A stretch of DNA of 63,944 nt, filler included, from Reclinomonas americana ATCC 50394 (lineage: Eukaryota), in assembly GCA_048213135.1 (NCBI GenBank). It is 16 parts of 16 records of this genome, joined end to end, with 100 filler letters (N's around TTAATTAATTAA, not from the genome) between each part and the next. Parts side by side here need not be neighbours in the genome. Positions count along the whole stretch, not along the records: positions 1 to 8,626 come from AFZH01022974.1; 15 more parts are not named here. One strand, given 5' to 3'. The notes under the pieces are model-generated. The model saw only the letters and a program-made list of their open reading frames with translations, made no database searches and was not told where the DNA came from. A program made the position numbers and the translations under genes. Each line of letters opens with the position of its first letter. The stretch's first letter is position 1. This document shows, piece after piece, positions 1 through 26,982 of the stretch.

Positions 1-3000
1 ATCGACGGGGAGCACAGCGTGCCGGATCGCTGGACACGACAGACTGGAGTTGCCGTTTCGTTGCCGCTGGTGGAGCGCGCTACCTGATTGATGCGCTGCT
101 GGGTGGCACTGTGGGACTGCAGGCGTCGAGTGTCTCTCGCCATTGCATGTCGGTGCTGTTGCGAGTGGTGGACCACTGCATGAGAAGTGCGTCTTCATGA
201 TTTGTCAGCAAAGCAGATTTTGGCAAACACACACACACACACACTCACGACCATTGCAGTGTGCGCCACTGTTCCGGGCCTTCCCACCCTGTGCTCGGCT
301 GCGGAGCTCGACCGACTCATGGTGCTGTGCATGGACATTGTGGCGGACACCGCCGCACCGGCGCCCGATTCCACCGCCGACGAAGCTGCTCAGCGACTGT
401 TTCGTAGCGCGAAGTCAACCATGATGCATGTGCAGCGCGACCAACTTTACGTGTGCGTGCGTGCAAATGCAGATTCTGCGACCTCGGTGGTCAAGTGGTC
501 CGCCAGGCATTGTCGCTGTTGGCGGCGTGCGTGCATTTGCGTGGCGGCAGCGCGCCTGTGGTGTCGTACGCACGGCGCCAGTCGAACTTGAGTGACTGGC
601 TCCGGCAAGCGCTGCTGAAGGCTCCCAGTTGCGTGCGAATCCTTCGTGGCTTTGTGTCATGGAGAGGTGTGCGTGTGCTCACGTTACACACACTCGCATC
701 ATGCAGCGTCACCGGTGCGTCACGGCGCCGCCGACGGGCTGACCATGTTGTTGCGGCCGGATGTGGCCGAGACGCGTGCAGTGGCGGCCGCAGCCATTCC
801 CAGCTTGCTTTCGTTCTTGCAAGCGGTGCGTGAGTTTCGGTGTGTCGGAGAATGGCGCTGTTGTGTTCTTACACTCGAAGCAGGAGGAACAAGAGATGGA
901 GGGCGATGTGGAGCCGTACTTTGCACTCGTGTCGCGCATTCTGATGTTCCCGCGCGTCAACGAGGTTGTGACCGAGGTGCAGACGCTGCTCGACATGGTG
1001 ATTCGCAAGATGTGCCGACGCCGAGTGATGGAGGTGAGGCGCAGTGGCGGTCTTACGCACAGGCTGTGAGAAGTGTGAGTGCTCACACACACACATACAC
1101 GTACAGACATCGTTTGGCGGTCCCACTTCCTCCGAAGACAAGGTGTTGGTGGGCCTCTTGATTCTCGCCTCCACCCTGCTACGCATGTCGCCACACCTGC
1201 GCATTCGCATCGAGCCAGGCGATTCGACGTTGCGTTGATCCTCCGTCGGGTGGTGAGCGGTGTGTGGTTTCTGATTTTCGGGGCCGTGTGCAGTGCATTC
1301 GATTTGCTGGAGGAGGTCTTTTTCAACTGCCTCTTCGGTGTGTCGCCACTTGAGGACGCCATTCGGTTGGCTGAGGTTCCAGAGTGCGATGTGCCCGCTG
1401 GCAAGAGCGTGAATCCGCGGACGCTACCCAAGTGCAAGATGCCAGTCTCACGCAATGCCGCCATGTCGTTGTTGCAGCAGCTGGCGGCCGACGACAAGGA
1501 TCACTTCCTTCGTCTGTGTGCCGCACTGCGCAGCGAAGTCAAGACACGTTGCGTGCGCACCGAGTCGTGCCCGCTCTATTTTTGCGTTGCTGTGTTTTGA
1601 TGAACTGTTTGCGCAGTGCAACCGCCGAACGAGTACATGGTTGGCTTCGTGCAGAACCAGCGCTCGCCGCTCGGATTCGTGGGCCTGCGCAATCTGGGTG
1701 CCACGTGCTACATGAACTCGATGCTCCAGCAAATCTACATGACGCCGACCATTCGTAGTGCGCTGTTGAGCCTGGACTTGCCGCAGATGCGGCCGGAGCA
1801 ACCCGACGACAACTACACACTGCTCATGCAGCTGCAGTCGTTGTTTGCGTGCGTCACTTACTTTTTGTGATATTTCCGGTGGGCAGTCACTGATCAGTTA
1901 CCGCGCAGGAGCCTGTTCCTGAGCAACAAAAAGTTCTACGATCCCGTGCCATTCACGTCGGTCTACAAGGACATGGACGGCAACCCCATCAATCCGCGTG
2001 AGCAGCAGGACACGAACGAATTCTTCAATGTGCTGCTCGACCGCGTGGAGGCCGCTCTGAAGCACACACCGCAGGTACATTGACAGACATGCCTATGTTT
2101 GTGGGTGCATGCATCGCTTACGTTTTTGTGTTTCAGCCATTCATCTTCCGCGACATTTTCGGTGGCAAGATCAGCAACCAGATCATTTGCAAGGATGTGG
2201 ACTTTGTATCGTCGAACGATGAGCCGTTTTACTCGGTCAGCTTGGAGGTGAAGAATCAGAACTCGATTCTGCAGGTGCGTGCATCATCGAACGGCAGATC
2301 CGCAAGTATGGTGCCTTACTTGTATGATCTGAGCAGAGTCTGGCGTTCTTTGTTCAAGGCGACATGCTCGAGGGCGACAACAAGTTCTACTGTGAGGAGT
2401 TTGATCAGCGCGTCGATGCACTGCGCCGACAGTGCTTCAAAGTTGCGACTGCGTTGCACTGAGCGCGCGCGTGTTGTTCTTGGTTGGCACTAAACTGTTC
2501 CTCCATATCGCAGGAGCTGCCGCCGATGATGGCGCTGCACTTGAAACGCTTCGAGTTCGACTACGAGCGCATGGTCCACGTCAAGATCAATGATCGGCTT
2601 GAGTTCCCGCTCGAGCTGGACATGTTCCCGTACACGGTGAAAGGCCTCGCCCAAAAGGGTCATCCCCTGGCCGGTGGTGCGTCGGCGTTGATGGCATGAA
2701 GCTCTCGTCTTGTGCTTCTGTCTCTCTCCTCACGGCTGTGTGCACACGCTTTCAGGCCTCTCCCGCTCAATGTTCAAACTGGCCAACACGCGCGACGAGG
2801 ACCCCGAATACTACCTCTACGATCTGGTCGGTGTGCTGGTGCACTCGGGTTCGGCCAACTCCGGCCACTACTACTCGTTCATCAAGGAGCGTGAGGATGG
2901 TGGCACGGACGACTCGGGCGGCTGGTACGAATTCAACGACACCACCATTCGCCCGTTCAGGCTGGATGTTGCGTCTGCATGTTAACTGTGGCGTGTGGTG

Positions 3001-6000
3001 GGCGTTTTCTCTGACCCGCCGTCACAGATGCTCGAGCGGGAGGCATTCGGCGGCACCGAGTCGTACACGATGCAAGATGGCACGAAGCGCGACGTTGTGC
3101 GTGCCCAGAACGCCTACATGCTGTTCTACAGACAGCGGCTGTACGCGAGGAAGGCACGCGAGCTGTTGCATCCGTCGTTGACGACGGAGGAGGACGGCGA
3201 AGTGGCTGCCGGCAGTGCATCGGCATCAACAGTGCCTGCTGTTGTTGGTGCTGGCGATGTGGCCGCCGACGCACAGCCTCCACCGCGCCGGCAGCGTCCT
3301 GTCTCTGCCGTGCCCGGTCGACGTGTGGTCATGGCCGACGACGACAAGTTGGTCAGACGGCCGAGTATGGAGGCGCCCGAGTCGCTCGTGACGACCAATA
3401 CGAGTGCCGATGCATTTGACGGCATCGATGAGGAGCGGTCGACCGTGGTGGACGAGGAGGGCGACGAGGGAGGTGCTTCGTCGTCGTCGGCTGGCAAGCG
3501 GCGCTCGGGATCGTTGGTTCTCACGGCTGTTGACCGTGCGCCGCCTGCTGGTATGTTTTTTTCTTGTCGCTTCGTTTTTCGGCGATTCCTCTATCTCATG
3601 GATTACTGACTGGGCGGCTTTGCAGAGGGAGCTGGCTCGTCGTCGTCTGCTGGCGCTCCAGTGCCATTGCGTGGTTCGTTTCCCTGCTGCAGCTTGCATG
3701 TCTCAATGACGTCTCACTTTATTTGTGCGCACGACAGACATGAAGACATTTGTGCTGTCGTATCTGGCGCCGGGCGGTGTGCGGCTACCGCGTGCCATTT
3801 CAGCGCCAGTGTGGACCGAGAATCAGGTGTTGCTGCGTCAGTGGTCCGTCTATGACCCTCAACTGGCGTCGTCGCTCGCCGATATCATGAATGAGCAAAT
3901 CACCCGACGTGAGCGTGCGCGCGGAGGAGCATCGGATCGTTGAGTGCTGATGTGTTCGTGTAGTTGGCGGTATGATCTGCTGCCACTCACTCTATTCGCA
4001 CGGCAGTGTCGGATTCGGATGTGCTGCTCGTGACGGATTTGCTGCTGCACTACACGGCGAATGTGGTTGCTCGAAGTGGCGAGAGCAGTCAGTTTTCGTA
4101 CTGGACGCAGCTTTTGTGCCGGTGGGCGGAGTTGTTCCCGTTGGTTTGTGTTCCATCGTGCACGAGTGTTTTTCCCTGCTTGTGACGCTGGAGTTGTGAC
4201 TCTTTTTTGTGGATAGGCGGCGACGTACGTTGCCGACCAGCTCAGCAACCAGCCCGACTGGCGCAAGAGCTTGCTGTTTGACCATCCGGCCGGCGACGTG
4301 CGGCGTGCATTTGGCGAGCTGCTGTCGCGCTGTGTGTGCCTGCTGTCGCGTGAGGAGAACTTGGAGTTGTATAATGGTGCGCGTGACATTCGATCACCAT
4401 CTTGTGTTTTCTACTTTTGCTGACCGTCGGCGCAGAGTTCGACCCATCGCAATTCGTCTCGGGTCTCACAGCAGAGCAGAGCGACGCTCTCGGTCACACA
4501 CTGTCGGAGCAGCGCTCGATTTTGTATCACGGCTCGTCGTTCACCGTGTCGAAGACGGCGTTGCCGGCACTAGTCAGTGTGCTGATTGACGCGGTGCGTA
4601 CGTTTGTGTGCTTGTGTGTGTCGAGTGCTCGCACGCTGCTGCTGACTCTCTTTGCGTTGTGCAGATTGACGATGCCGGTCTCGCCGGTCGTCGGGCGCTC
4701 GAATACTTCCGCCTGATGGGCACCATTGCGGAGCAATGTGATGTGGAGGTGAGAGACAGCAGAGCATGAAAAAATCAGCAGTATGTCGCCCGCCCTCACG
4801 CTTTCTGGAATCACGCAGCGCGAATGGATGGTGGCACGCGGACTCGTCAGCAAGGTGGTGGCTGTGCTGGAGTCCGAATCCGCTGCAGTGCGACAACAGA
4901 ACGAGCAGCGCACGAGCCTGTCATCGTCGTCGGGTGGGCGCAATCCGTATTCCAGCTCCACTGGTAGCCACTTTTCGACGGCAGCCACGGCGGCCATGGC
5001 CGGCATGGATAATCAGCGCGTGGCGCTTCCAGGCACGGCTGCGGCCTCGGCGGCTCCCGCGTACGGTCCGCAGCCGGCGCCGCGGAGCACGTACCGGTAC
5101 ACTGGCATTGGCAGCAGCAGCTACCGACCGCAGACGCTGTGCGATCGCATCGGCGGTGAAACCCTGCAGCGCGCCATGCGCCTGCTACGCGTGCTGGTCA
5201 CCTCGTGTGGCACCGTGCAGTCGGCCATTCACGGTCCCCCGCCGACACTGTACCTGTCACCACGCAACCAGCAGGCCGACTCGCCGACACAGGGCACCGG
5301 CAGCTCACTGCCGCCCGACATTCGCATGCCTGCACTGTCGCAGGAGGATGTCAAGGCTCTCTTCAGCAAGGTGTGTGTGCGTGTGTGTGCCGCCCCCCCG
5401 GCACGATGTTTGATGGGGAGTTTCGCTTACGTTTAATGGGGGGCTGGCAGTATTTCATTGCGCACGTCATGGAGGAGGACGTGGCCAATGTCGAGTTGTT
5501 CGAGATCCTCGTGCACTGGTGCTGGGAGAGCATCGACATTTCGCGCAACATGGTATGCATGGTGATCGAGAACCTGGATCACTTGCCGTACACCATGTAT
5601 CCGTCGTACCTTGCGCTGCTCGATCGCTTGCTGAATATTCACGACTCGGTCTCGGCCGCACGGTGCGTTCGCTTTTCTCGTGTGCTGTCGCACTGTTGGG
5701 GAGCTGATCACGTATGTATGTGTATGCACACTCAACAGTGTCAAGTACGCCATGGGTCGCGTGCTGTCACTGGTGCGCCAAAACGTGCACAACCGCAACG
5801 CCGCGCACACATGCATGCGCTTTTTGATGGAATGGGAGAGGCCTTCGGAGGAGGCACAGGCGTTGCGTGCCGGTCGGACTCGCCCCCTGCTGCGATCGGA
5901 TAACCTCACTCACTCTTCTGTGTAATCCGCAGGTGGGTACACAACAACATGGCGACGTTGCGCGACATGTGCCAGCAAGTCGGACTGGTCATCAAGGAGA

Positions 6001-6035
6001 AGCGTCCAGAATCGGCATCGGCAGAGCGGCGTTGA
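1..6035 (+). CDS. Large ubiquitin C-terminal hydrolase, USP9/USP24/USP34-like (5'-partial, multi-exon), haplotype A
   Basis: Spliced exons give Cys box [40 protein letters not shown], His box [29 protein letters not shown] and NAYMLFY. The last exon ends ...SASAERR TGA at 6033-6035. All checked introns are GT-AG. Confidence 0.92.
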
Positions 6036-6238
6036 AAAAAAGCAAAGGCGAACTGAGTTCAGAAGCAGCCGAACGAGAGAGAGAATGGAAGAGAGTACAG
6101 CGTGTTCCCATATTTATAACGCGATCGGAAGTCGAGACGGAGTGACTCCGAGGGCCCTCACCAATCATGCATTAAATCCGAACACAAGCGGGCAGACAAC
6201 TTCATTCTTCTTGTGTGTGTGTGAGAGAGAGAGAGAGG

Positions 6239-7232
6239 ATGAGTCGCACAGTGTTGCCTGCAGTGGCTGGCGCGTCGTCTGACCCCAACCTGGAGATCAT
6301 GTACTTTGCGATGGGATGATTTTGGTGCGAGACGGCTTTCGGGTGCGTTGTCTCCCTCTCACTCTCTCGTGACTGTTGCATCACCCGTGGCTCAACTCCA
6401 CCGCGTGCAGAGTCCTTCCGGGAGTCGTCCGCACCAGTGTCGGGTATCAGGTGTGTGATCAGCAGCAACACAGACAGGTGCAATTGATCGGGTCATTGAC
6501 TCGTGCGACTGCAGGGTGGCAAGACCAAGAACCCGACGTATAGAGACATGAAGGACCACACCGAGTCCATGCGTGTCGAGTTCGACCCTCGCCTGGTCTC
6601 CGTCAGCGAGCTCCTCGCGGTCAGTCTTGCGCAGTTGTCGTTGTGATCTTTCCCTTGTCTCATGGTGGGGGCGCGCGCAGGTGTTTTGGAGCCAGGTCGA
6701 TCCGACGCACATGTCCTCGGTGCAGTACAAGTCGGCTGTGTTTTACACGTCGGACGAGCAGGCGGCGATCGTGCGCGACTCGATTCCCAAGCTGCGTGCG
6801 GGTGAGAAGCTCGCCACGACGATCGAGGCCTTCCGTGAGCCGTGGTATCCAGCTGAAGGTCGGTTCTCGTGCGCGACTTGCTGGTGCGCCCCTGTTGGCT
6901 TATCGTGCGTGCGCGAACCAGGGTATCATCAAAAGTACTATCTGCGCCACCGCTCGGATCTTCTTCGAGTGCTCGAGGAGTCGGGTGTTGACATGGCCGA
7001 CGATGTGGCAGTGACGGATTCGCCATTGGTTCGTCCAGCAGTCAATGGTGGCTGGTGTTGCCGAGTTGTCTTACCGCGTGTGTGCTTCTTGCAGGCCACC
7101 AAACTCAACGCCTACGCCAATGGGCTCGGCACGGCAGCGTCGGTGGAGCGCGACGCAGCGGCGTTTGGACTCGGTCCCGAGGCCGTCGATGTGCTGCGCA
7201 AGTACATCCGCGGTGCCGGTGGTCGACGCTAA
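6239..7232 (+). CDS. msrA: Selenoprotein peptide-methionine (S)-S-oxide reductase MsrA, Sec27 (TGA 6317-6319), haplotype A
   Basis: Exons 6239-6342, 6411-6450, 6515-6619, 6681-6858, 6922-7028 and 7095-7232 total 672 nt (223 aa). Motifs: FAMG[U]FW, TSVGYQGG, NPTY, DHTE, QYKSAVF, AEGYHQKYY and C-terminal ATKLNAY. The TGA sits exactly at the catalytic Cys of GCFW. Confidence 0.93.
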
Positions 7233-7313
7233 CAGGAGGGCGAGGGGTGGGTGGCGGCGCCGACAACTGGCGCGTGATGACGGAGGACGTGATGGAGTTC
7301 TGTGTGCCAACGG

Positions 7314-7375
7314 ATGACGTTGTCAGCAACAAGGAAGAGACGGTAGTTCGTTCATTCTTCCTGCTGACGACTGAT
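7314..7375 (+). promoter_or_regulatory. Eukaryotic SECIS element (type II-like) in msrA 3' UTR
   Basis: ATGAC (7314-7318) and TGAT (7372-7375) form the non-Watson-Crick core. Stem GTTGTCAGCA/TGCTGACGAC, unpaired ACAA (7329-7332) and apical minihelix GGAAGA/TCTTCC. Lies ~80 nt after the stop and is identical in haplotype B. Confidence 0.88.
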
Positions 7376-7519
7376 GCGGATCGCGCCGACTTTTTTTTTC
7401 TTGCTGTCGGCGCCCCACACATGGCACAACTCTGTCGCGGCCATCCATCGTCACGCGATTCTTCGTGTGCTGTCGCAAACAATGAACCGAGGCATATTCA
7501 GCTGCTGTCATCTTCCTCC

Positions 7520-8432
7520 TCACGGAGACTTGGCGCCCGACTTCTCCCACGGCTTGCGTCGCACACTACTGCTCTTGCTGCGTGTCACCGCGGAGAGACT
7601 GGCCGTGCGCGCCAGTGGCGACCCACCGTCGTCACTGCTCGCCATCGAGGCCGGCGGTCGTCCGGCTGACGGCAACGGCGCCGGCATCGATGGCAGACCG
7701 ATGGCATCCGCCGGCACCACAAACGACGCCGCAAACGGCACGCCACGCACGGCCTCCAACTGCACAGCCGAGCTCGCCAGCTGCGATCGCGACTCGACAA
7801 ACATGCGGAACTCGGTCTCCAGCATCGCCACCAGCTCACCATCCACGCTCTCCAACAGCGTGGCAGGCTTGCGTGTCGCCAGGCTGAACGCACAAACACG
7901 ATGAGCGATCGCCGGAAGCATCACCACAAACGAGCCAAAAAACAACAATGCAACTCGTGTCGCACGCCACTGCTGTTGATCGCTTCCTCGTGCTGCGGCT
8001 GCCTGCTTTCGCCTTCCTCCTCCTCCTCGCCGTGAGTCTGCGTGCCTTGTGTGCGCATCACTCGCTTCTCTTCTTGCTCCACTCGTTGTGGTCGCGCGCG
8101 TCGACGAGTCAGCCACAACAGCATCGAGGCCAGCTGCGCGCGGAACAAGCGACGACGATGCACTGCACGCGGGATGCATCAGCACACGCTCACACACAAC
8201 AAGAGAGAGAGAGAGAGAGATCGACCTTTGTTGATACGCTGCAGGTGCTCATGGACAGCCTCGTCGACTTGACGCTGCACCGAGTCGCGTCGCCACCATC
8301 TGCATACAGCATGCACAATGATTGAAAGACAGCGAGGAGCAAGTCGAAAGTGCCACGCAACTCGCTTGCTGCATAGGAGACCAGTGCGCCCACAAGAGCG
8401 CTCAGTGCAAACGACCACCATTGGTCGCGCAT
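7520..8432 (-). CDS. Hypothetical membrane protein (probably one intron), haplotype A
   Basis: ATG 8432 MRDQWWSFALSALVGALVSY..., hydrophobic segments and a long open frame to 7520. The frame is open in both haplotypes, with indels concentrated in a GA-rich putative intron (~8180-8225). Confidence 0.5.
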
Positions 8433-8726
8433 GCACAGTCGCGAAAAAAAGCGGAGAAGAAAGTGTGAGAAATTTTCGCTCGGAGTTCAGCGCGCGTTCA
8501 CTTTTGTTTGCCAGCGTGTTTGTGTGAGAAAAGAGCTCGACACCAACATGGCAGGTGTGTGCACCGCGCACTGTCTCCTCCCTGTCTGCCTGTCTGCGTG
8601 TGTGCTTTTTTTCGTGTGTGTGTTTGNNNNNNNNNNNNNNNNNNNNNNNNNNNNNNNNNNNNNNNNNNNNTTAATTAATTAANNNNNNNNNNNNNNNNNN
8701 NNNNNNNNNNNNNNNNNNNNNNNNNN

Positions 8727-11700
8727 TTCTGTTCAACGACTCGCGGGTCGTGAATCCAGAAGAGGTGGGGAGCGAGCGCGTGGTCAGGCGGCCTGCAAGA
8801 TAGGCCGTCACCAGGGCAGCCACATCGAGGTTGACCTGGACGTGGTCGCCAGAGGTGGTCGACACTGCGCGTGACAAATGAGCACGACTTGCACATTGCA
8901 ATGAGCAGCCACATCGTCGTTGACGCAACCGTCCAGCACAAAGGAGAGGGAGAGGCTCTTGTAGCCCGACGGCACATTAAATGACGGCGTGACATCGGTG
9001 GCTTTCTCGCTACTGGCGTCCGAGGACAACACCGACCGGTATGATACTGAACATGGAGACAAGGCGAAGGGTCAGCAACAATCCGGCTGCAGGCACAACA
9101 ACGCGGATGGTGTTTTTCTGGAACGAACCGTTTGCCGAGGTTCCGGTCGGTGCTAAAATTTTGATTTGCACAGGCCCCGCAGCCGTGCTCTGACTGACGG
9201 TGAGAGGGGCGACTGCGGATGTGATCTGCGTCGAGACGACCACCAGCTGGCACCGGCGACCGTCGTAACCCGAGTTGCACACACACGGTTGTACGGCGTC
9301 GGGATTCTCGGTTGAGCACTTGCCGTGTCCGTAGCAAATGACGGACGAATCGCACACTGCGCGCCGCGAGGTGAACACACCACTCCGACACAGAAGAAAA
9401 TGTGCACCATCGATCCGCAAGCCACTCAACTGTTCGGCGTGGGTGTGGGCTCGTCTGGCGGCGGTGCTGGCGTCGGATTCGTCGTGTTTGTGTTGTTGAC
9501 AAACACAAAATCCGTGCACTTGGGCAGTAGGAACGGAGCCGTACAATTGGTGCAATACTGTCCCTCCCAGTGGCCGTACCAGTCGGTCTTGTAGCATACG
9601 CACACGCCGCTGAGATCGCACACGCCGTGCTTGTTGCAGGTGTAGCGCCCCTGGCACACTGCGAATTCCAAAGAACGCGCACTCGTGTCAGCCATCCACT
9701 GAAACTCACACACCAGCACACACACACGCACCAGACGACAACCAGCCACCGACACGAGTGAACGAGGGCTGACCGGGTGGCCGCAGACAAAACGTATAGT
9801 TGCCGACATCGATGCCAGCAAAGCTGTACGACAGCTGCGACCCGTCGTCATTGACAAGTGTGTCATTGGGCCTGTTGCATCCTACGTCTGCGCAAGCTCC
9901 TTGACAGACTCGTGCCTCGTAGCCGAGTTTAAGGCCAATGCCGATAATGTACAGGCGGAATGAGCGACGTGCGATGACGGACGTGGGATAGTACGAGTCG
10001 ATGGTGGGTCCCGAGGCTGCAGTAACAACAGCATTGGGTATGGAAAAAAAAGATGTTGCCACAAACCGGTGCAGTGCGCGCGCACCTTCGTACACCGAGG
10101 AGCCGACACGGACAGCAGACATGGCGCCGGCGTACTTGATGCACACGTACCATGACGAGAGTGGGAGAGTGCCGTTGAAGGACACAATGAGCTGCGTGGC
10201 GGAATTCGAGACACTCATCACCATCGGAATGAACTTGTTGGGTCCGAAGACGGTGCAGTTGCCGCTGGTGGAATTGACCAGCGTGATCACATCACCAATC
10301 GTCAGTGACGTACCCTGCAGCGGCGCGCGCGTGAGAGAGAGGGAGAGAGAAAGAGACAAGAAGGGAGCAGCACTACACATATCACACACCTGCACACTGA
10401 TAGTGTGTTCCGTGTCGTTGGCCAGCGTGCGCGTCGGCGTGAAAAAGTTCACCGTCGGTGTGACTGCGTTGCGTGATGGGTGAGTCCCCTTGACAGCAAC
10501 AATGAACCGGCGATAGCGACGCACCAACGCGCGGGTCAAAGGCACCGTGCAGCGAGTGCTCGTCGAGGAGCGAGGCACCTGAGCGCTGCAACACATTGTT
10601 CTCAAAGTAGTTTTGCACATTCTGCGACACGAAAAAGCCCTCCACCGCCTGTGCGCGAACGGATCGTGTCAGCCTTCATGCCGTCTTGCAAGCACTCACA
10701 CAAGCAAATGACGTAACCGTCGGCGAAGTTGCAGCCTGGTGCATGTCGGTGAGAATATTGTCGACGAACAGCGAGTGGCGCACCAGGCTACCGGCGGACA
10801 GTGCCCTCCCACACTGCGCACGGCATGTGAGGAAGACTTGCGGACAGATGCAACACAACGTGAAGAAACCCGAGAACGCACCCGCTGGAACAACGACGCG
10901 GTCACTTCGCTATTGTCGGCATCGTCGGCATGGATGGCCGCACCGCCAATGTCGGTGAAGCGCGAGTGGTGCACCGACAATTGCGAAATGCTCGACACGG
11001 CCTGAATGCCGGCCGTCGACTGTCCACACACCCCATGGCGGTGAGCACACCCGCAGCAACAAGCAATCAAAGAGTAGAAGAGAGAACACGGATACGAAAC
11101 ATGACGATCCAGGTGCACGTTGCGAATGGTGACACGCGAGACGCCGCTGGCTATTCTGATGCCCACCGGCGAGACGCCCACTCGGATCGACAGTGGCGCA
11201 ACCCCCGACACAGTTCTCACATACACTGTGCCACGCACGGACACGCACACGCAGTAGTCGGTCACTGGTGCACTTTACACACACGCAAAGCATCGTCACC
11301 CCCCCGCACGCAACAGATACTGTCGACATCATCAAAGAAGTAGACATTGCGACCCTCCGCCGCCGACTCTGACAGCTCCTGCACAGAGCTGCACGAGCAC
11401 GACTTCGTCAACATCATGCAGCTCACGGAACAAGATCCTCCCTCCCTCACCTTGTCGCCGAAAACGCATGGGTATCGAGATCGAGCACAACGCCGAGTGA
11501 GCCACGAAAGTGCGGCACCGAGGCCGCCAAGTCGACCTTGTACACCCCATTCTCCACTACTTGCCACGCCGTATCATCCACCAGCGCAAGCGCCGACAAC
11601 AGCGGCAGCGCCGTGCTGCCCACAGTATCCGGACGCGACGCATAAAAGCCCTGCACCTGCTCCGGATCCTCGATGTACGCGTCGACAATCGTGTCGGGCA

Positions 11701-12096
11701 GCGCCACCTCGAGCGTGCCTGTGCGGAAGGCTGCTGAGCACACTGTGCCACTCACCTCCAGAGTGTGAGTGCGTCTGTGCACGCACCTGGAAACACATCA
11801 CCACGACGCAGACGAATGACAGTCGGCCGACCGGCCACTGCCGCCTCCTCGAGGGCCTTGCGTCGTCGCCGCAGCACTCCATTCAGCTCAGAGAGCGAGC
11901 CAAACGGGTTCCACACACTACCTCGCGTTCTCCACGGCGCTGCCGACGATAATGACGCCGAAGTCGACACATGATACACAATGGCATTATCCTCCACGTC
12001 GTTGTCATACTCCACATGCGCTGTGCCTCGTACCGCGACGCACACAAGCAGCGCCGCCACGGCTAATAGCACGACGACAAGAGGCACTCCTCTCAT
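8727..12096 (-). CDS. Large secreted/surface protein: signal peptide, pectin-lyase-like beta-helix, Ig/IPT-like and EGF-like modules (3'-partial), haplotype A
   Basis: Signal-like N-terminus MRGVPLVVVLLAVAALLVCVAVRG; IRLRRGDVFPG; GIRIASGVSRVTIRNVHLD; EGF-like CNKHGVCDLSGVCVCYKTDWYGHWEGQYC and CYGHGKC...CVCNSGYDGRRC. Confidence 0.7.
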
Positions 12097-12160
12097 CACG
12101 AAGTAACCCTATTCTTGCAACCGTCTGAATATTCGCCCGCCGCACGGTGACCCTTTGGTA

Positions 12161-12525
12161 ACCCAAGATGATCGCGACGGGGCGAACGGGGAAGGGTCTG
12201 GGGCCAAAGATCGGTCACAAAAAAGAATGGATCTTGGTCCCTGAAAAGAATGGATCTCTCAGCCGGAGCTGTGAAAGCAGACAATTGCCGCGAAATTGCA
12301 GCCGGGAAATTGGCACATTTCCGAAAGTGGACGCTTGCAGCATGCAGCTGACTATCTTACGTTAACCAAAGCAGTCTAGAGGAGCACGCAGAACACTAGC
12401 CTCCGTGCTATCGCTGTTTTGGCACGTTACCAAGAGGTTTTGTTAGTCAATTCCACTCGATCAACTGATTCGGGTCACAGGTCTCGCACAGCCCCACCCA
12501 AGATGATCGCGACGGGGCGAACGGG
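12161..12525. mobile_element. Haplotype-specific 305-bp insertion (12191-12495) flanked by a 30-bp direct repeat
   Basis: ACCCAAGATGATCGCGACGGGGCGAACGGG occurs at 12161-12190 and 12496-12525. The other haplotype has a single copy (37443-37472) and no insert. Confidence 0.8.
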
Positions 12526-13908
12526 CACACAAGCGTATCTGCAGGCCCTCGAGATCCGACTCGGCATCATCCAGCTGCAGGATGTTGCGTGCGCGGGGTG
12601 CTTTTCACAGACAATCATTGTTTTTCGCGCGCTCTGACGACGGTTGTCTCTCTCACTCTCACACGCTCTTCCAACGCACAGCTGCTCCAGACGTTCTCTG
12701 ATGATGTTGCGCAGTCGCACTTGTCTGCCTACGTGCCTGTCCTTTCTTCCATGCACGTGCTCATCGCTTGCCCACTTGTCTCTCGGCAGCCTGGCGAGGC
12801 ATCGATGCGTGGCGAGATCGAGCAGCTGCAGACGGCGCTGAAGCACTCGCCGTATGAGGAGCGATTGCGTCACATGCCGCGCACAGAGGTGGAAGCGGAG
12901 ATTCGGCGGCACTCGTTGCGTCGCTCTGTGTGTGTGTGCAAAATCGTTACAACGACTGATGTCGATCGCTGGCAGCCTTCAACAACCACGAGGCGAGGGC
13001 GTGGCAAGTGGGCAGCGATCGCCACTGGTGCCCACTGATGTGCGCAACTTGCCGCGGGCGGTGCTGGGCAGTCCGGAGTCGATGGGCACGCTGGAGAGTC
13101 ATGAACACGAGCGTGACGATGACGACGATGATGATGGTGATGATGAGGGCGAGGGTGACGATGGGCACGGCAGCATGTCAGGGTCGCCATCGCACGATGT
13201 GCGGCAGTTGGAGAAGCTGCACGTGCGCGCTGAGGAGCTGGTGAGTGACACGTGTGTTATTCTCTCGCTCTGCGCGGTCTGACTGGTGTGGCAATGGGGC
13301 AGGAGAACCTGCTTGCACAATGTGCAGCGTGGCTACGTACGCACAAGTTCCAGGAGATTGTCGAAGCCGTGGCGCCGTTTGACCCAGAGGAGAACGCACG
13401 CAAGAATGTGAGTGAGTGTGCCTCGTGAAGCGTGCACGATGCTGACAACAAATGACGGTCCCTTTCTCAGCGTCAATTCCGCGTGGGCGATCGCGTCGCT
13501 GTCGGCGACTTGCTGCTGCTTGGCATCGTGCGATATTTTGGCAGAGCCAACGTTGGAGACGGCGACTGGGTCGGCGTCGAGTTGGATACTGATGGTGTGT
13601 GTGTGGCGGCAGAAGTTTTGCTTCGATAGCTCATGCGTGCATGCTGTGCAGACGGAAAGCACGACGGCACGGTGAACGGACATCGATACTTCCAATGCGC
13701 CGCCACGCGTGGCGTGTTTGCCAAGCCCGAGCATGTGATGCACTACTGGAAGGAGGTGTGTAGTGCGCCCAATAGCAGGCTCGATCGAGTGACTCAATCT
13801 TCTCTGCGTGATGGCAGTCGACGGCCACGGATGCCACCTCGCCATCCAATGTTTGGTGACGCAGCACACCGTGCACTCATCCTCTTGCTCTTTGTTTCAC
13901 ACGAAATC
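12503..13908 (+). CDS. CAP-Gly domain protein (multi-exon, 3' end uncertain), haplotype A
   Basis: FRVGDRVAV...GIVRYFGRANVGDGDWVGVELD / GKHDGTVNGHRYFQCAATRGVFAKP matches the CAP-Gly GKNDG motif. Confidence 0.85.
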
Positions 13909-14008: not shown

Positions 14009-16035
14009 AAAAAAAAACAGACATCATAGGACAACGCACCTCCGATTTGAATGCTGGCCAGACGAGCGTACGAGTTGTAGGGCGGCGGAGCACCGGCCAA
14101 GTCAGTGGCCGACGGCCCATGCCAGCGGACGCACACTGTGCACCACAATTAAGTAACTAATCGCGGTGCGAGACAAGAAAATTGCTTCCTCACGCACCGT
14201 CGTACAGTCCCGGCTGCGCGTAGATGGTTGGCGTGTTCGGATCGTCGACAGTGTTGACAGTCAGCGTGTACGTGCCAATGGCGGCAGTGCCAGTGAAGGA
14301 ACTGGCCGTGACCCACGTGCCCGACGCGGGCGCTGCAATCAGGCAGGTACCGCCAGCCGACGGCTGCACCAAGACGAATGCCAAGGCGTCGCCGCTGACG
14401 TTGCCCGGATTCATCTCCACGTTGAGGCGCAAAGTCTCGCCGATACGAGCAGTGCGGATGGGCAGACTCGGTGAGTTGTACAGATTGGCTGCGCACATTA
14501 CACAACTTTGTTGTCAGTTGCAACACCTCCTGACACACTAGGCGGCGCGTTGAACGTACCAACACGCAGGCGGACAATGGGAATGTAGGTCGGCGTGTTG
14601 CTGGTCGTGTCGAGCGAGAAGCACAGCATGTCGGGACCATCGGGCATGGCGTTGTTGGCGACGGTGAACGTCAGATCGATCTCGGTGATGGCACCGGCTC
14701 CTGACGATGGGAACGTCTGCATGACTTGCACGGTGTCCTCCGACGAGCCGCTGCAGTCGGCGGTCTCGAACACGGCCCAGCCAGTGGTCGGATAGGTCGG
14801 ATCCTGCGGTCCGACAAGGCCAGAGCCGAGAATACGAATCGCGTGCGGGTTCGAGGCACCGGTAAAGGTGATGCGAGACGGAGTGGAGATGGTTGCTGTG
14901 TTGCAAAAAATATAATGTTAGGAAGATGGTGGTGTGGGAACAAACGAAAAAGGAGAAGGATCGCAGAGAATATATAAAAAAAAAATACGCAACGGCGAAT
15001 GTCGATCTGTCCAATGGAGGCGTAGTCACCAGTGGTGTGCCAGCGAGCGCACAGACGGTACGAGCCGGCCAGCGCAGTCGTCGAGCCAATGATGGTGCTC
15101 ACTTGCAACTGCATGCGTCCGCCCGGCGAGGCGCCGGTGAGCGACAGGAACTCCACCGAAGTGCCGTCGATGGGCGAGAATGCCGTCAGTTGGCACGTGT
15201 GCGAGATGTAGAACGCCGAGAAGTCGCCCAGCGTGCTGCCCATGTCGTGTCCGTCCAGCGTCACTTGCACGCCCGTCACACCCGACGGAAGCACACCCGG
15301 AGTGGTCGGCTGCAGGAAGCTGACTTCCGGCGTCAAGTTGGCCACACGAGCTGTCGCACACGAGTAAGAACACGAAAGTACAAACAAGGCTACGCAGAAC
15401 AAAACGAAAAACCAAGGGTGACACACCAACTTGCAGCGTACGCAGCGGACGCCAAATGTTGCGCGACGGAGCCGTGGGAATGTTGGCATTCTTCTGGCAC
15501 AGGAAGAACAGTGGCCCACTGGCGCTGGTGGCGGCCGACACGAAGAAGTTGAAGGTGGCCGAAGTGTCCGCGGGCGACGTCACCGTGATGACGGGAGTGA
15601 TGTCGGACTGCTCCGTGCAGTTCTCGTTGGCAAACACAAAGAAGGTCTGTGTCGGGTCGCTGGAGCGGAAGCCGGCGCCAATCACCGTCAGTGCTTGGGT
15701 CGGCAGAGGCGGGAACTCGGCATGAGTGCCGTGGTGCAGACGGAGCGGCGATGCCGCCGGCTGCGTCACGAGCGCCGTCACGTCAAAGTAGGCCAGCGCA
15801 GCGTGCGGCTGCAGACCAGCGTCACCAATCCAGGAAACGCACAGGTAGTACGTGCCACCAGCGGCTGGCGCTGGAGCCTCGTTAAGACTGATGGTCAGCA
15901 CCAGCGACAGTCCGGAGGCTGTGCCGGTGATCAGACTGCCAGACAGCTGATTGCCCGGCGAGCACGAGATGCTGTCGGCGAGGAAGACTTGGTTCGGGCC
16001 GAGGGACAGGAAGACGGGGTAGGCACTCGGCACAC
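14009..16035 (-). CDS. Internal fragment of a repetitive beta-sandwich surface protein, haplotype A
   Basis: S/T-rich exons with recurrent Y/F-x-L-C motifs (GTYYLCVSW, LFFLCQK, GSYRLCARW, DMLCFS) separated by GT-AG introns. Similar in style to the 8727-12096 gene and may be part of it. Confidence 0.6.
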
Positions 16036-19100: not shown

Positions 19101-22100
19101 CAGGACGCCGTCCTTGACACACTCCAATTCCACCTGCGCGCATTCGGTCTGGAGAAATTTGCCAGCATGGCGCGGGAGCGCACTATGCGTTTCCGACCAG
19201 AGGCCTCTCTCGGAGCGGAGCCTTCGGTGGAGGCGCGCTTTGCGTTGGACACGGTGGCGGTGCGTTTCGTGTCAGTGTCTTCTAATATTGCACCGTGCGC
19301 GACAGCTCATGTCTTTGTGTGTGTTTTTGTCGCGACAGGTCGATGAACAACAGCGACGCAGCGATCAAGTGTTTGCGCGGCCANNNNNNNNNNNNNNNNN
19401 NNNNNNNNNNNNNNNNNNNNNNNNNNNTTAATTAATTAANNNNNNNNNNNNNNNNNNNNNNNNNNNNNNNNNNNNNNNNNNNNGTCGACGGGGAGCACAG
19501 CGTGCCGGATCGCTGGACACGACAGACTGGAGTTGCCGTTTCGTTGCCGCTGGTGGAGCGCGCTACCTGATTGATGCGCTGCTGGGCGGCACTGTGGGAC
19601 TGCAGGCGTCGAGTGTCTCTCGGCATTGCATGTCGGTGCTGTTGCGAGTGGTGGACCACTGCATGAGAAGTGCGTCTTCATGATTTGTCAGCAAAGCAGA
19701 TTTTGGCAAACACACATACTCACGACCATTGCAGTGTGCGCCACTGTTCCGGGCCTTCCCACCCTGTGCTCGGCTGCGGAGCTCGACCGACTCATGGTGC
19801 TGTGCATGGACATTGTGGCGGACACCGCCGCACCGGCGCCCGATTCCGCCGCCGACGAAGCTGCTCAGCGACTGTTGCGTAGCGCGAAGTCAACCATGAT
19901 GCATGTGCAGCGCGACCAACTTTACGTGTGCGTGCAAATGCAGATTCTGCGACCTCGGTGGTCAAGTGGTCCGCCAGGCATTGTCGCTGTTGGCGGCGTG
20001 CGTTCACTTGCGTGGCGGCAGCGCGCCTGTGGTGTCGTACTCACGGCGCCAGTCGAACTTGAGTGACTGGCTCCGGCAAGCGCTGCTGAAGGCTCCCAGT
20101 TGCGTGTGAATCCTTCGTGGCTTTGTGTCATGGAGAAGTGTGCGTGTGCTCACGTTACACACACTCGCATCATGCAGCGTCACCGGTGCGTCACGGCGCC
20201 GCCGACGGGCTGACCATGTTGTTGCGGCCGGATGTGGCCGAGACGCGTGCAGTGGCGGCCGCAGCCATTCCCAGCTTGCTTTCGTTCTTGCAAGCGGTGC
20301 GTGAGTTTCGGTGTGTCGGAGAATGGCGCTGTTGTGTTCTTACACTCGAAGCAGGAGGAACAAGAGATGGAGGGCGACGTGGAGCCGTACTTTGCACTCG
20401 TGTCGCGCATTCTGATGTTCCCGCGCGTCAACGAGGTTGTGACCGAGGTGCAGACGCTGCTCGACATGGTGATTCGCAAGATGTGCCGACGCCGAGTGAT
20501 GGAGGTGAGGCGCAGTGGCGGTCTTACGCACAGGCTGTGAGAAGTGTGAGTGCTCACACACACACACACACACGTACAGACATCGTTTGGCGGTCCCACC
20601 TCCTCCGAAGACAAGGTGTTGGTGGGCCTCTTGATTCTCGCCTCCACCCTGCTGCGCATGTCGCCACACCTGCGCATTCGCATCGAGCCAGGCGATTCGA
20701 CGTTGCGTTGATCCTCCGTCGGGTGGTGAGCGGTGTGTGGTTTCTGATTTTCGGGGCCGTGTGCAGTGCATTCGATTTGCTGGAGGAGGTCTTTTTCAAC
20801 TGCCTCTTCGGTGTGTCACCACTTGAGGACGCCATTCGGTTGGCTGAGGTTTCAGAGTGCGATGTACCCGCTGGCAAGAGCGTGAATCCGCGGACGCTAC
20901 CCAAGTGCAAGATGCCAGTCTCACGCAATGCCGCCATGTCGTTGTTGCAGCAGCTGGCGGCCGACGACAAGGATCACTTCCTTCGTCTGTGTGCCGCACT
21001 GCGCAGCGAAGTCAAGACACGTTGCGTGCGCACCGAGTCGTGCCCGTTCTTTTCAGCGTCACTGTGTTTTGATGAACTGTTTGCGCAGTGCAACCGCCGA
21101 ACGAGTACATGGTTGGCTTCGTGCAGAACCAGCGCTCGCCGCTCGGATTCGTGGGCCTGCGCAATCTGGGTGCCACCTGCTACATGAACTCGATGCTCCA
21201 ACAAATCTACATGACGCCGACCATTCGTAGTGCGCTGTTGAGCCTGGACTTGCCGCAGATGCGGCCGGAGCAACCCGACGACAACTACACACTGCTCATG
21301 CAGCTGCAGTCGTTGTTCGCGTGCGTCACTTACTCCGTGATATTTCCGGTGGGCAGTCACTGATCAGTTACCGCGCAGGAGCCTGTTCCTGAGCAACAAA
21401 AAGTTCTACGATCCCGTGCCATTCACGTCGGTCTACAAGGACATGGACGGCAACCCCATCAATCCGCGTGAGCAGCAGGACACGAACGAATTCTTCAATG
21501 TGCTGCTCGACCGCGTGGAGGCCGCTCTGAAGCACACACCGCAGGTACGTTGACAGACATGCCTGTGTTTGTGGGTGCATGCATCACTTACGTTTTTGTG
21601 TTTCAGCCATTCATCTTCCGCGACATTTTCGGTGGCAAGATCAGCAACCAGATCATTTGCAAGGACGTGGACTTTGTATCGTCGAACGATGAGCCGTTTT
21701 ACTCGGTCAGCTTGGAGGTGAAGAATCAGAACTCGATTCTGCAGGTGCGTGCATCATCGACCGGCAAATCCGCAACCATGTTTCCTTACTTGTATGACTC
21801 TGAGCAGAGTCTGGCGTTCTTTGTTCAAGGCGACATGCTCGAGGGCGACAACAAGTTCTACTGTGAGGAGTTTGATCAGCGCGTCGATGCGCTGCGCCGA
21901 CAGTGTTTCAAAGTTGCGACTGCGTTGCACTGAGCGCGCGCGTGTTGTTCTTGGTTGGCACTAAACTGTTCCTCCATATCGCAGGAGCTGCCGCCGATGA
22001 TGGCGCTGCACTTGAAACGCTTCGAGTTCGACTACGAGCGCATGGTCCACGTCAAGATCAATGATCGGCTTGAGTTCCCGCTCGAGCTGGACATGTTCCC

Positions 22101-25100
22101 GTACACGGTGAAAGGCCTCGCCCAAAAGGGTCATCCCCTGGCCGGTGGTGCGTCGCCGTTGATGGCATGAAGTTCTCGCCCTGTGCTTCTCCCTCTCTCC
22201 TCACGATTGTGTGCGCACACGCGCTCAGGCCTCTCCCGCTCAATGTTCAAACTGGCCAACACGCGCGACGAGGACCCCGAATACTACCTCTACGATCTGG
22301 TCGGTGTGCTGGTGCACTCGGGTTCGGCCAACTCTGGCCACTACTACTCGTTCATCAAGGAGCGTGAGGACGGTGGCACGGACGACTCGGGTGGCTGGTA
22401 CGAATTCAACGACACCACCATTCGCCCGTTCAGGCTGGATGTTGCGTCTGCATGTTCACTGTGGCGTGTGTTGGGCGTTTTCTCTGACCCGCCGTCACAG
22501 ATGCTCGAGCGGGAGGCGTTCGGCGGCACCGAGTCGTACACGATGCAAGATGGCACGAAGCGCGACGTTGTGCGTGCCCAGAACGCCTACATGCTGTTCT
22601 ACAGACAGCGGCTGTACGCGAGGAAGGCACGCGAGCTGTTGCATCCGTCGTTGACGACGGAGGAGGACGGCGAAGTGGCTGCCGGCAGTGCATCGGCATC
22701 AACAGTGCCTGCTGTTGTTGGCGCTGGCGATGTGGCCGCCGAAGCACAGCCTCCACCGCGACGACAGCGTCCTGTCTCTGCCGTGCCCGGTCGACGTGTG
22801 GTCATGGCCGACGACGACAAGTTGGTCAGACGGCCGAGTATGGAGGCACCCGAGTCGCTCGTGACGACCAATACGAGTGCCGATGCATTTGACGGCATCG
22901 ATGAGGAGCGGTCGACCGTGGTGGACGAGGAGGGTGACGAAGGAGGCGCTTCGTCGTCGTCGGCAGGCAAGCGGCGCTCGGGATCGCTGGTTCTCACGGC
23001 CGTTGACCGTGCGCCGCCTGCTGGTATTTGTTTTTTCTTGTCGCTTCGTTTTTCGGCGATTCCTCTATCACATGGATTACTGACTGGGCGGATTTGCAGA
23101 GGGAGCTGGGTCGTCGTCGTCTGCTGGCGCTCCAGTGCCATTGCGTGGTTCGTTTCCGTGCTGCAGCTTGCATGTCTCAGTGACGTCTCACTTTATCTGT
23201 GTGCGCGACAGACATGAAAACATTTGTGCTGTCGTATCTGGCGCCGGGTGGTGTGCGGCTACCGCGTGCCATTTCAGCGCCAGTGTGGACCGAGAATCAG
23301 GTGTTGCTGCGTCAGTGGTCCGTCTATGACCCTCAACTGGCGTCGTCGCTTGCCGATATCATGAATGAGCAAATCACTCGACGTGAGCGTGCGCGCGGAG
23401 GAGCATCGGATCGTTGAGTGCTGATGTGTTCGTGTAGTTGGCGGTATGATCTGCTGCCACTCACTCTATTCGCACGGCAGTGTCGGATTCGGATGTGCTG
23501 CTCGTGACGGATTTGCTGCTGCACTACACGGCGAATGTGGTTGCTCGAAGTGGCGAGAGCAGTCAGTTTTCGTACTGGACGCAGCTTTTGTGCCGATGGG
23601 CGGAGTTGTTCCCGTTGGTTTGTGTTCCATCGTGCACGAGTGTTTTTCCCTGCTTGTGACGCTGGAGTTGTGACTCTTTTTTGTGGATAGGCGGCGACGT
23701 ACGTTGCCGACCAGCTCAGCAACCAGCCCGACTGGCGCAAGAGCTTGCTGTTTGATCATCCGGCCGGCGACGTGCGGCGTGCATTTGGCGAGCTGCTGTC
23801 GCGCTGTGTATGCCTGCTGTCGCGTGAGGAGAACTTGGAGTTGTATAATGGTGCGCGTGACATTCGATCGCCGTCTTGTGTTTTCTACTTTTGCTGACCG
23901 TCGGCGCAGAGTTCGACCCATCGCAATTCGTCTCGGGTCTCACAACAGAGCAGAGTGACGCACTCGGTCACACGCTGTCGGAGCAGCGCTCGATATTGTA
24001 TCACGGCTCATCGTTCACTGTCTCGAAGACGGCATTGCCGGCGCTTGTCAGTGTGCTGATTGACGCGGTGCGTACGTGTGTGCTCTTGTGTTTGTCGAGT
24101 GCTCGCACGCTGCTGCTGACTCTCTTTGCGTTGTGCAGATTGACGATGCCGGTCTCGCCGGTCGTCGGGCGCTCGAATACTTCCGCCTGATGGGCACCAT
24201 TGCGGAGCAGTGTGATGTGGAGGTGAGAGACGAAATTGTATGAGCAAGAAAACTTTGCCCACCTCACGCATTCTGAAAAATCACACAGCGCGAGTGGATG
24301 GTGGCACGCGGACTCGTCAGCAAGGTGGTGGCTGTGCTGGAGTCCGAATCCGCCGCAGTGCGACAACAGAACGAGCAGCGCACGAGCCTGTCATCGTCGT
24401 CTGGTGGACGCAATCCGTATTCCAGCTCCACTGGTAGCCACTTTTCGACGGCAGCCACGGCGGCCATGGCCGGCATGGATAATCAGCGCGTGGCGCTTCC
24501 AGGCACGGCTGCGGCCTCGGCGGCTCCCGCGTACGGTCCGCAGCCGGCGCCGAGGAACACGTACCGGTACACTGGCATTGGCAGCAGCAGCTACCGACCG
24601 CAGACGCTGTGCGACCGCATCGGCGGTGAAACCCTGCAGCGCGCCATGCGCCTGCTGCGCGTGCTGGTCACCTCGTGTGGCACCGTGCAGTCGGCCATTC
24701 ACGGTCCGCCGCCGACACTGTACCTGTCACCACGCAACCAGCAGGCCGACTCGCCGGCACAAGGCACCGGCAGCTCACTGCCGCCCGACATTCGCATGCC
24801 TGCGCTGTCGCAGGAGGATGTCAAGGCTCTCTTCAGCAAGGTGTGTGTGTGTGTGTGTGCCGCCCCCCCGGCACGATGTTTGATGGGGAGTTTCGCTTAC
24901 GTTTAATGGGGGGCTGGCAGTATTTCATTGCGCACGTCATGGAGGAGGACGTGGCCAATGTCGAGTTGTTCGAGATCCTCGTGCACTGGTGCTGGGAGAG
25001 CATCGACATTTCGCGCAACATGGTATGCATGGTGATCGAGAACTTGGATCACTTGCCGTACACCATGTATCCGTCGTACCTCGCGCTGCTCGATCGCTTG

Positions 25101-25502
25101 CTGAATATTCACGACACGGTCTCGGCCGCACGGTGCGTTCGATTTTCTCGTGTGCTGTCGCACTGTTGGGGAGCTGATCACGTATGTATGTGTGCACACT
25201 CAACAGTGTCAAGTACGCCATGGGTCGCGTGCTGTCACTGGTGCGCCAAAACGTGCACAACCGCAACGCCGCGCACACATGCATGCGCTTTTTGATGGAA
25301 TGGGAGAGGCCTTCGGAGGAGGCACAGGCGTTGCGTGCCGGTCGGACTCGCCCCTGCTGCGATCGGATAACCTCACTCACTCTTCTGTGTAATCCACAGG
25401 TGGGTACACAACAACATGGCGACGTTGCGCGACATGTGCCAGCAAGTCGGACTGGTCATCAAGGAGAAGCGTCCAGAATCGGCATCGGCAGAGCGGCGTT
25501 GA
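16136..25502 (+). CDS. USP9/24/34-like deubiquitinase, haplotype B, including N-terminal ARM-like and ubiquitin-like regions (spans gap 19384-19483)
   Basis: 16136-19383 encodes [23 protein letters not shown]...[13 protein letters not shown]...[10 protein letters not shown] and a Ubl-like segment [32 protein letters not shown]. 19484-25502 is a near-identical copy of 1-6035. Joining across the gap is inferred. Confidence 0.8.
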
Positions 25503-25697
25503 AAAAAAAGCAAAAGGCGAACTGAGTGCAGAAGCAGCCGAACGAAAGAGAGAATGGAAGAGAGTACAGCGTGTTCCCATATTTATAACGCAATCGGAAG
25601 TCGAGACGGAGTGACTCCGAGGGCCCTCATCAATCATGCATTTAATCCGAACACAAGTGGACACACAACTTCATTTTTTGTGAGAGTGAGAGAGAGG

Positions 25698-26699: not shown

Positions 26700-26780
26700 C
26701 AGTTGAGCGAGGGGTGGGTGGCGGCGCCGACAACTGGCGCGTGACGACGGAGGGCGTGATGGAGTTCTGTGTGCCAACGG

Positions 26781-26842
26781 ATGACGTTGTCAGCAACAAG
26801 GAAGAGACGGTAGTTCGTTCATTCTTCCTGCTGACGACTGAT
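26781..26842 (+). promoter_or_regulatory. SECIS element, haplotype B
   Basis: Identical to 7314-7375. Confidence 0.88.
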
Positions 26843-26982
26843 GCGGAGCGCGTCGACTTTTTTCCTTGCTGTCGGCGCCCCACACATGGCACAACTCTGT
26901 CGCGGCCATCCATCGTCACGCGTGCACTGTCGCAAAAATGAACCGAGGCATGTTCAGCTGCTTTCTTGCGTCATCCTCCTCC

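Follow-up and report, generated by a model that had tools for sequence, protein, structure and literature searches.

A predicted selenocysteine-containing MsrA of the Clostridium oremlandii type in a genome assembly of Reclinomonas americana

In the genome assembly of Reclinomonas americana ATCC 50394 (GCA_048213135.1) we identified a functional nuclear protist gene that very probably encodes a selenoprotein MsrA. Its predicted 223-aa product is of the Clostridium oremlandii type, in which a catalytic domain is combined with a C-terminal helical domain. This reading is supported by the structure of the gene, the TGA at its catalytic codon, a SECIS-shaped hairpin behind it, the selenocysteine (Sec) machinery found in the assembly and the selection acting on the frame. 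Enzymes of this kind have been found before in algae, marine invertebrates, a fungus and many bacteria, and the gene described here adds a member.

Results

A six-exon gene with TGA at the catalytic codon

All coordinates refer to the window, i.e. the whole stretch of DNA that was analysed (63,944 nucleotides, filler included). It is made up of short contigs; positions 1-8626 are contig C7507 of the 108-Mb, 16,441-contig assembly.

The MsrA gene occupies the plus strand within 6239-7232 and consists of six exons separated by five GT-AG introns of 61-68 nt. Spliced, it measures 672 nt, or 223 codons and a TAA; the TGA at codon 27 is the sole internal stop. The same holds for a second copy of the gene in the window, and there is no frameshift in either copy: the intact 223-aa spliced frame claimed in the first-pass annotation of this DNA is borne out by the six-exon model.

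Exon 1 (6239-6342) carries the start ATG and the catalytic motif G-U-F-W-C-E and aligns with motif-bearing homologues; with the TGA read as U, it gives a weak PF01625 match at model positions 2-13 (E 0.2). Exon 2 (6411-6450) is placed by the splice model and the homologue alignment. Exon 3 (6515-6619), with Tyr57 and the acid catalyst Glu65, and exon 4 (6681-6858), with Gln98-Tyr99 and the core of the MsrA domain, each exceed the curated PF01625 cut-off of 23.7 bits separately (27.3 and 28.2 bits, respectively), and exon 4 finds its best PDB matches in 7c13, 4u66 and 4lwj-m. Homologue and PDB alignments place His145 and Tyr148 (HQKY) and the start of the helical domain in exon 5 (6922-7028). 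Exon 6 (7095-7232) holds the helical-domain motif, by alignment with PF20939-bearing homologues, and the TAA stop (7230-7232). PF20939 itself has no direct Pfam match on exons 5-6; in the alignment of this region with homologues, several of them bearing that domain, there are no long gaps. On the intron-containing 3' part, TIGR00401 reaches only 21.3 of 108 bits. The spliced alignment crosses all five junctions with 14 of 16 homologues, the first two junctions being covered by few rows.

The catalytic site reads ATG GGA TGA TTT TGG (6311-6325). As had been claimed, an in-frame TGA lies at the MsrA GCFW site: at 6317-6319 on the plus strand, within G26-U27-F28-W29, it takes the position of the catalytic Cys and is predicted to encode selenocysteine. 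The best solved relatives of the protein are the C. oremlandii MsrA (CoMsrA) structures (PDB 4lwj-4lwm, 4u66, 7c13 and 4w8c). Mapping on the active-site residues described for CoMsrA (PMC4479559), we find that Tyr57, Glu65, Gln98-Tyr99, His145 and Tyr148 match CoMsrA Tyr47, Glu55, Gln89-Tyr90, His137 and Tyr140.

Next to the motif stands Cys30 (6326-6328, plus strand), which forms a U-x-x-C with the predicted Sec. No other cysteine occurs in the protein, at the C-terminus or elsewhere. The presence of Cys30 sets the protein apart from the strict 1-Sec type, which has no Cys besides Sec. A one-residue deletion relative to most relatives follows: from Trp29 to GYxGG, 64 of the 65 prokaryotic loci that could be measured (11 could not) have one residue more in the catalytic helix. 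The deletion need not be decay, because the Cys-type database protein P0017 has the same Trp-to-GYxGG spacing.

TGA is the normal catalytic codon of the helical clade

With the relative P0114 we found 80 prokaryotic loci, 76 of which show the catalytic motif; their catalytic codon is TGA in 27 cases and a Cys codon in 49. Where the helical-domain motif is present, the proportion of TGA rises to 24 of 27. In a midpoint-rooted tree of 51 of 87 rows, from which non-helical Cys rows had been thinned, the query falls inside the helical, TGA-bearing, Sec-rich clade with support 100/95. The residue at Sec+3 is never Cys in the TGA-bearing prokaryotic loci (0/27; 26 Gly, 1 Thr), many of which have one or two Cys at other positions; in the Cys-type loci, Cys occupies +3 in 35 of 49, as counted by eye from the alignment rows.

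The best database identities to the query protein are 42-44%, and no close relative turned up. The motif is kept in only five of 132 database homologues (four Cys, one Trp), a set biased by a profile that covered the N-terminus poorly; the remaining 127 begin after it. Such annotations are expected, because gene callers stop at UGA, and we consider them artefacts since genomic relatives show the TGA in frame. Two database records of the clade have W at the catalytic site and are probably code-4 translations. One match, P0002, proved to be a spurious repeat match to intron 4 and was dropped. A search with exon 4 alone returned no homologue and one with the 3' part of the gene a single weak match; no homologue was present among 596 candidate metagenome contigs.

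A Luapelamoeba hula protein (EP01087_P006630, P0003) is a helical-clade MsrA whose annotated start is placed past the catalytic motif, as one would expect of a hidden Sec form. It appears in the tree as a weak sister of the query (82/86, below the support threshold), shares 38% identity with it and ends in a Cys-containing tail. In the accessible literature we found no description of Sec-MsrA in Amoebozoa, and PMC8038987, in its available part, concerns a different MsrA.

The occurrence of Sec-MsrA, which the first-pass annotation had called patchy, is instead widespread. According to the accessible parts of the respective papers, it ranks with the most widely distributed selenoproteins of algae (PMC7539508), is found in five of six marine invertebrates examined (PMC3473315) and occurs in Ostreococcus and Thalassiosira (PMC2375036) and in Gonapodya (10.1101/314781; 10.1101/2021.02.26.433065); to these add the 27 of 80 prokaryotic loci with TGA at the same position.

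A type II SECIS element behind the gene

A SECIS hairpin had been reported about 80 nt past the stop, and we confirm it: its AUGA begins 81 nt downstream. We assign it to type II, at 7314-7375 on the plus strand, with AUGA at 7314-7317, a 10-bp helix (7319-7328/7362-7371), an unpaired ACAA (7329-7332), an apical stem of 11 bp with a 3-nt bulge (7333-7361) and UGAU at 7372-7375. The quartet is UGAC/UGAU, and the A-rich bulge is one-sided. The core fold has a z of -4.0 to -5.1 against 200 shuffles. The available part of PMC2647825 lists an unpaired A, UGAN/KGAW, a helix 2 of 11-16 bp, unpaired adenines, and G and Y adjoining the quartet, and gives the SECIS elements of MsrA genes as type II; the present element conforms in all of these, with A-UGAC/UGAU, 4+10 bp, the ACAA bulge, and G and C at positions 1/1'.

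Rfam SECIS_1 gave no SECIS match on 7200-7500 (one miRNA match, E 0.22) and no element in the whole assembly, where 121 of 578 candidates were scored. It is an insensitive test here, because the textbook-shaped element of TrxR from the same assembly was missed as well. A pattern-plus-fold scan of both strands over 452 kb, i.e. the window (125 kb, two matches) and 48 loci that partly overlap or are paired (326 kb, four matches), yielded six matches, all behind the TGA-bearing genes MsrA, MsrB and TrxR; its thresholds were chosen after the three elements had been seen. An earlier, stricter scanner had produced three false matches in the window and two in the loci.

Patterns of lower stringency are useless alone, with about 262,000 places for the loose pattern and 363 for the medium one. 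The tight MsrA/MsrB pattern matches nine times, four of these being the MsrA and MsrB copies; of the other five matches, the three loci that were read, one of them standing for a haplotype pair, look unrelated. Reversed, the tight pattern matches once, which is not a fair null given the 363:28 forward/reversed bias of the medium pattern. Among the 100 medium-pattern matches listed, related 75-nt units recur on C14, C44, C45, C46, C102, C110, C120 and C147; they are possibly coding repeats.

The MsrA and MsrB elements are alike: they have the same bases around the quartet, a 4-nt bulge, a long apex and 11 shared pairs. Their alignment score, which ignores structure, exceeds that of 5000 out of 5000 shuffles. 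Three compensatory changes are seen, a level reached by 27 of 500 shuffles with only three distinct rows. A covariance model built from both elements re-finds MsrA and gives the TrxR element only 9.4 bits; its weak match at 58842-58910 lies inside the coding frame of a MeaB/MMAA gene and is probably due to chance. Inside the quartet, the apical part measures 53 nt in the MsrA element versus 40 nt in that of TrxR from the same genome. The accessible part of PMC2375036 reports long apical stems or mini-stems from Ostreococcus and Chlamydomonas and from the deiodinase of Dictyostelium. The likeness of the two elements may be ordinary, since the same source reports for Dictyostelium that SECIS elements of one species converge in sequence.

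Two copies of the gene and selection behind the TGA

A DNA search with the MsrA contig matches exactly two places in the assembly. The second, at 19484-28073 of the window, is 96.4% identical over 8.6 kb. It carries the MsrA copy of the other haplotype or strain at 25698-26699 (plus strand), with the same six exons, and a SECIS at 26781-26842 (plus strand) identical in sequence to the first; the TGA of this copy is at 25776, and both elements are present where the first-pass annotation had put them. Two further contig pairs in the window are 95-97% identical (9704-13898 with 34962-38846, and 14012-16033 with 38947-40973); both haplotypes, or two strains, are therefore present throughout the assembly.

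Constancy of the TGA between the copies had been taken as support for recoding. It has no weight, as an unchanged codon is expected by chance with P=0.96. The SECIS is indeed unchanged, as also claimed, but its evidential weight is modest: 67 nt without a change against 34 differences in 682 non-coding bases (P=0.03). Such invariance is not even required, because two positions distinguish the copies of the TrxR SECIS.

Overall, the two MsrA copies differ by seven synonymous and three non-synonymous changes. Behind the TGA there are seven synonymous changes and one non-synonymous, where a share of 0.28 would be expected to be synonymous (P=0.0009, taking the measured transition bias into account). 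The codons downstream of the TGA are under purifying selection, and the frame behind it is therefore translated.

The expressed product could be a shorter protein begun at Met60 or Met67, where in-frame ATGs are available, or one whose TGA is skipped by splicing; either would lack the catalytic residue. Most database homologues are annotated in just this way, but these truncations are artefacts, as the in-frame TGA of the genomic relatives indicates. From the TGA to the next in-frame ATG, at codon 60, the copies show four synonymous changes versus one non-synonymous (P=0.02), which argues against such a start, and no acceptor AG past the TGA gives a frame-keeping intron of 61-68 nt. We regard a product of this kind as very unlikely.

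Slightly less probable still is a recent pseudogene, in which a Cys codon would have turned into TGA before the copies split and the hairpin would be there by chance. A single change turns TGY into TGA, the loss of a residue next to the active site might be a sign of decay, and a Cys-type gene is among the further MsrA genes of the organism. The purifying selection behind the TGA speaks against decay, as do the lack of a frameshift or other stop, a SECIS in the expected place by a scan with no false match in 452 kb, and the fact that TGA is the catalytic codon to be expected in the helical clade.

A genome-wide reassignment of UGA to Trp or Cys, which would make SECIS-dependent recoding unnecessary, hardly comes into consideration. 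It would agree with the W at the catalytic site of two database records of the clade, but TGA is still a stop codon here, because the dihydrolipoamide dehydrogenase (DLD) and SPS genes end in it. Further, the three Trp codons of the MsrA gene are all TGG, the internal TGAs sit at known Sec sites, and the only tRNA with a UCA anticodon, in a search aimed at tRNA-Sec, is the Sec tRNA.

Selenocysteine machinery and other selenoprotein genes

The Sec machinery predicted by the first-pass annotation was found in large part: tRNA-Sec with anticodon UCA (72.3 bits; C170 and C194), SepSecS (261.9 bits versus a cut-off of 224.85; C8170 and C8065), eEFSec (C208 and C742) and SBP2 (E 3e-14 to 7zjw_B; C202 and C215). 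The prediction holds less well for the other two components. SPS (L024/L025, on C1146 and C1079), an intron-containing gene, is of the Cys type, reading G-C-G-C-K with Cys where SPS2 has Sec; it is the only eukaryotic selenophosphate synthetase found in the assembly. For PSTK there is a kinase (C4992 and C2431) that matches TIGR03575 in pieces with E 5.6e-5, far below the cut-off, and whose Pfam match, KTI12, covers a paralogue too. Its P-loop and DN-F-Y-Y motif look to us like those of PSTK.

Three other genes have TGA at a known Sec site, namely GPx, MsrB and TrxR, with a readable SECIS in two. In the MsrB gene (L063/L064, on C19/C111), a CAP-Gly domain is fused to MsrB and the TGA stands in R-F-U; its SECIS, 43 nt past the stop, has a long apex like the MsrA element. 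TrxR (L082/L083, on C496/C384) is of the large form; its last intron measures 81 nt and is followed by the terminal C-S-T-U-G, and its compact SECIS is found 179 nt past the stop. Among the GPx genes (L044 on C760, L038 on C22 and L041 on C352), TGA is read at the Sec site on C760, and the C352 gene has Cys; the TGA-bearing gene is interrupted by an intron of unusual length (about 0.8 kb), and no SECIS was found in its available 3' sequence, which runs into a contig end or N.

Other members of these families were seen as well. Further large TrxR-like genes (L085 and L091; C54 and C5/C7) have the tail G-G-C-P-S-C, a Cys-x-x-Cys with the spacing of the Sec form. MsrA genes besides the query are L015/L016 and L017/L018: one is a Cys form with G-C-Y-W, and the 5' part of the other reads N at the catalytic codon, with no SECIS found behind it. 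Sep15/SelM profiles matched nothing, nor did their controls, and the single weak match of the Rdx profile is not a convincing gene.

The eukaryotic part of the assembly has a GC content of about 58% and numerous short introns; C1, C2 and some small contigs are bacterial. Tetranucleotide correlation (r) to the MsrA contig is 0.78-0.95 for the machinery and other selenoprotein loci, 0.59-0.68 for four other GC-rich loci and 0.16-0.25 for the bacterial C1 and C2. The attribution of all eukaryotic contigs to a single source organism is based only on composition and paired copies. That the machinery stems from another eukaryote in this mixed assembly, leaving the owner of MsrA unable to insert Sec, is extremely improbable, as each machinery gene, like MsrA, was found as a pair of nearly identical copies whose GC content and tetranucleotide profile are similar to those of MsrA.

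Neighbouring genes in the window

Upstream of MsrA, both copies (1-6035 and 19484-25502, plus strand) hold the 3' part of a large gene for a ubiquitin-specific protease (PF00443). The TGA predicted as its stop (6033-6035) precedes the MsrA ATG by 203 nt, and a TATA-like stretch is located near 6110. Downstream, a 242-aa open frame without a Pfam match runs convergent to MsrA (7520-8248, minus strand); its 3' UTR may overlap the SECIS region.

Elsewhere in the window, all on the plus strand, are an intron-containing helicase with DEAD and helix-hairpin-helix matches (28379-29482), an adaptor medium-subunit family gene (PF00928; 32590-34139), which we take to be delta-COP, and a MeaB/MMAA GTPase (PF03308; 58376-59062), which points to a B12-dependent methylmalonyl-CoA mutase. 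Around its P-loop, the helicase presumably resembles bacterial RecG/Mfd. Helicases of that kind are unusual in eukaryotes outside plants.

Discussion

The gene thus most probably yields a selenoprotein by the known eukaryotic pathway. After splicing, SBP2 would bind the GA/AG quartet of the SECIS in the 3' UTR, and eEFSec would deliver Sec-tRNA(UCA) to codon 27. By analogy with MsrA chemistry as in CoMsrA, the Sec27 selenolate would then attack methionine-S-sulfoxide held by Tyr57, Glu65 and Tyr99, and methionine would be released.

With CoMsrA, from Clostridium (Alkaliphilus) oremlandii, the protein has in common the Sec predicted in G-U-F-W, the Tyr/Glu/Gln-Tyr/His/Tyr set, a probable C-terminal helical extension and the lack of a C-terminal resolving Cys. 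It differs in that its gene is eukaryotic, has five introns and carries a SECIS in the 3' UTR, in being one residue shorter after the motif and in having Cys30 at Sec+3, whereas CoMsrA is described as being without any Cys in the accessible part of PMC4333827. As reported in the available parts of PMC4333827 and PMC4479559, the Sec form of CoMsrA has 20 times the activity of the Cys form and depends on glutaredoxin, not thioredoxin, for its recycling. Since the protein has no C-terminal Cys, recycling through glutaredoxin/glutathione as in CoMsrA, with no resolving Cys, would be the most likely route, if by a limited preference. Alternatively, and with a clearly smaller chance, Cys30 might form an Se-S bond with Sec27 that thioredoxin would reduce.

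The Sec-MsrAs of Chlamydomonas, Ostreococcus, Thalassiosira, marine invertebrates and Gonapodya prolifera belong to the same family and use the same recoding system; here they are compared by description only, from the accessible parts of PMC2375036, PMC7539508, PMC3473315, 10.1101/314781 and 10.1101/2021.02.26.433065. According to the last two, the Gonapodya proteins also have one extra Cys outside the usual resolving position. The U-F-W-C form was not found in the literature available to us; the supplementary alignments of PMC3473315, PMC7539508 and 10.1101/2021.02.26.433065 may already show one.

A second Cys at +3, as in the query, is a feature of the GCFWC-type Cys MsrAs of Bacillus subtilis, Deinococcus and Bacteroidota. 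The sampled GCFWC loci fall outside the helical clade and use Cys, whereas the query falls inside it and has TGA. In the B. subtilis enzyme, the +3 Cys is the recycling residue. Our literature search found no paper supporting this role of a +3 Cys in MsrA. The accessible part of PMC8945050 describes the second Cys at +3 in both B. subtilis and Deinococcus MsrA and, for the latter, presumes a C-terminal Cys to be the recycling residue instead.

A bolder proposal joins the active site to the SECIS elements. Sec27 and Cys30, helped by the deletion, would make a built-in U-x-x-C pair, and recycling would proceed by a short Se-S bond and not by way of glutaredoxin as in CoMsrA; in addition, the Sec-MsrA and Sec-MsrB mRNAs would have in common a long-apex subtype of SECIS that differs from the compact TrxR element, either by copying of the element between these two unrelated repair genes or by selection for joint control under selenium limitation. 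Taken as a whole, we hold this to be improbable.

The present work sets right a gene model on which ordinary gene callers fail. It shows an apparently complete eukaryotic selenocysteine system in this protist, with at least four predicted selenoprotein genes (MsrA, MsrB, GPx and TrxR), and for specialists it adds one more data point to the known distribution of Sec-MsrA. The MsrA/MsrB pair of SECIS elements is a natural example of elements missed by Rfam, and through its U-F-W-C site the protein lends itself to an inexpensive test of the recycling of Sec-MsrAs that have no C-terminal cysteine.
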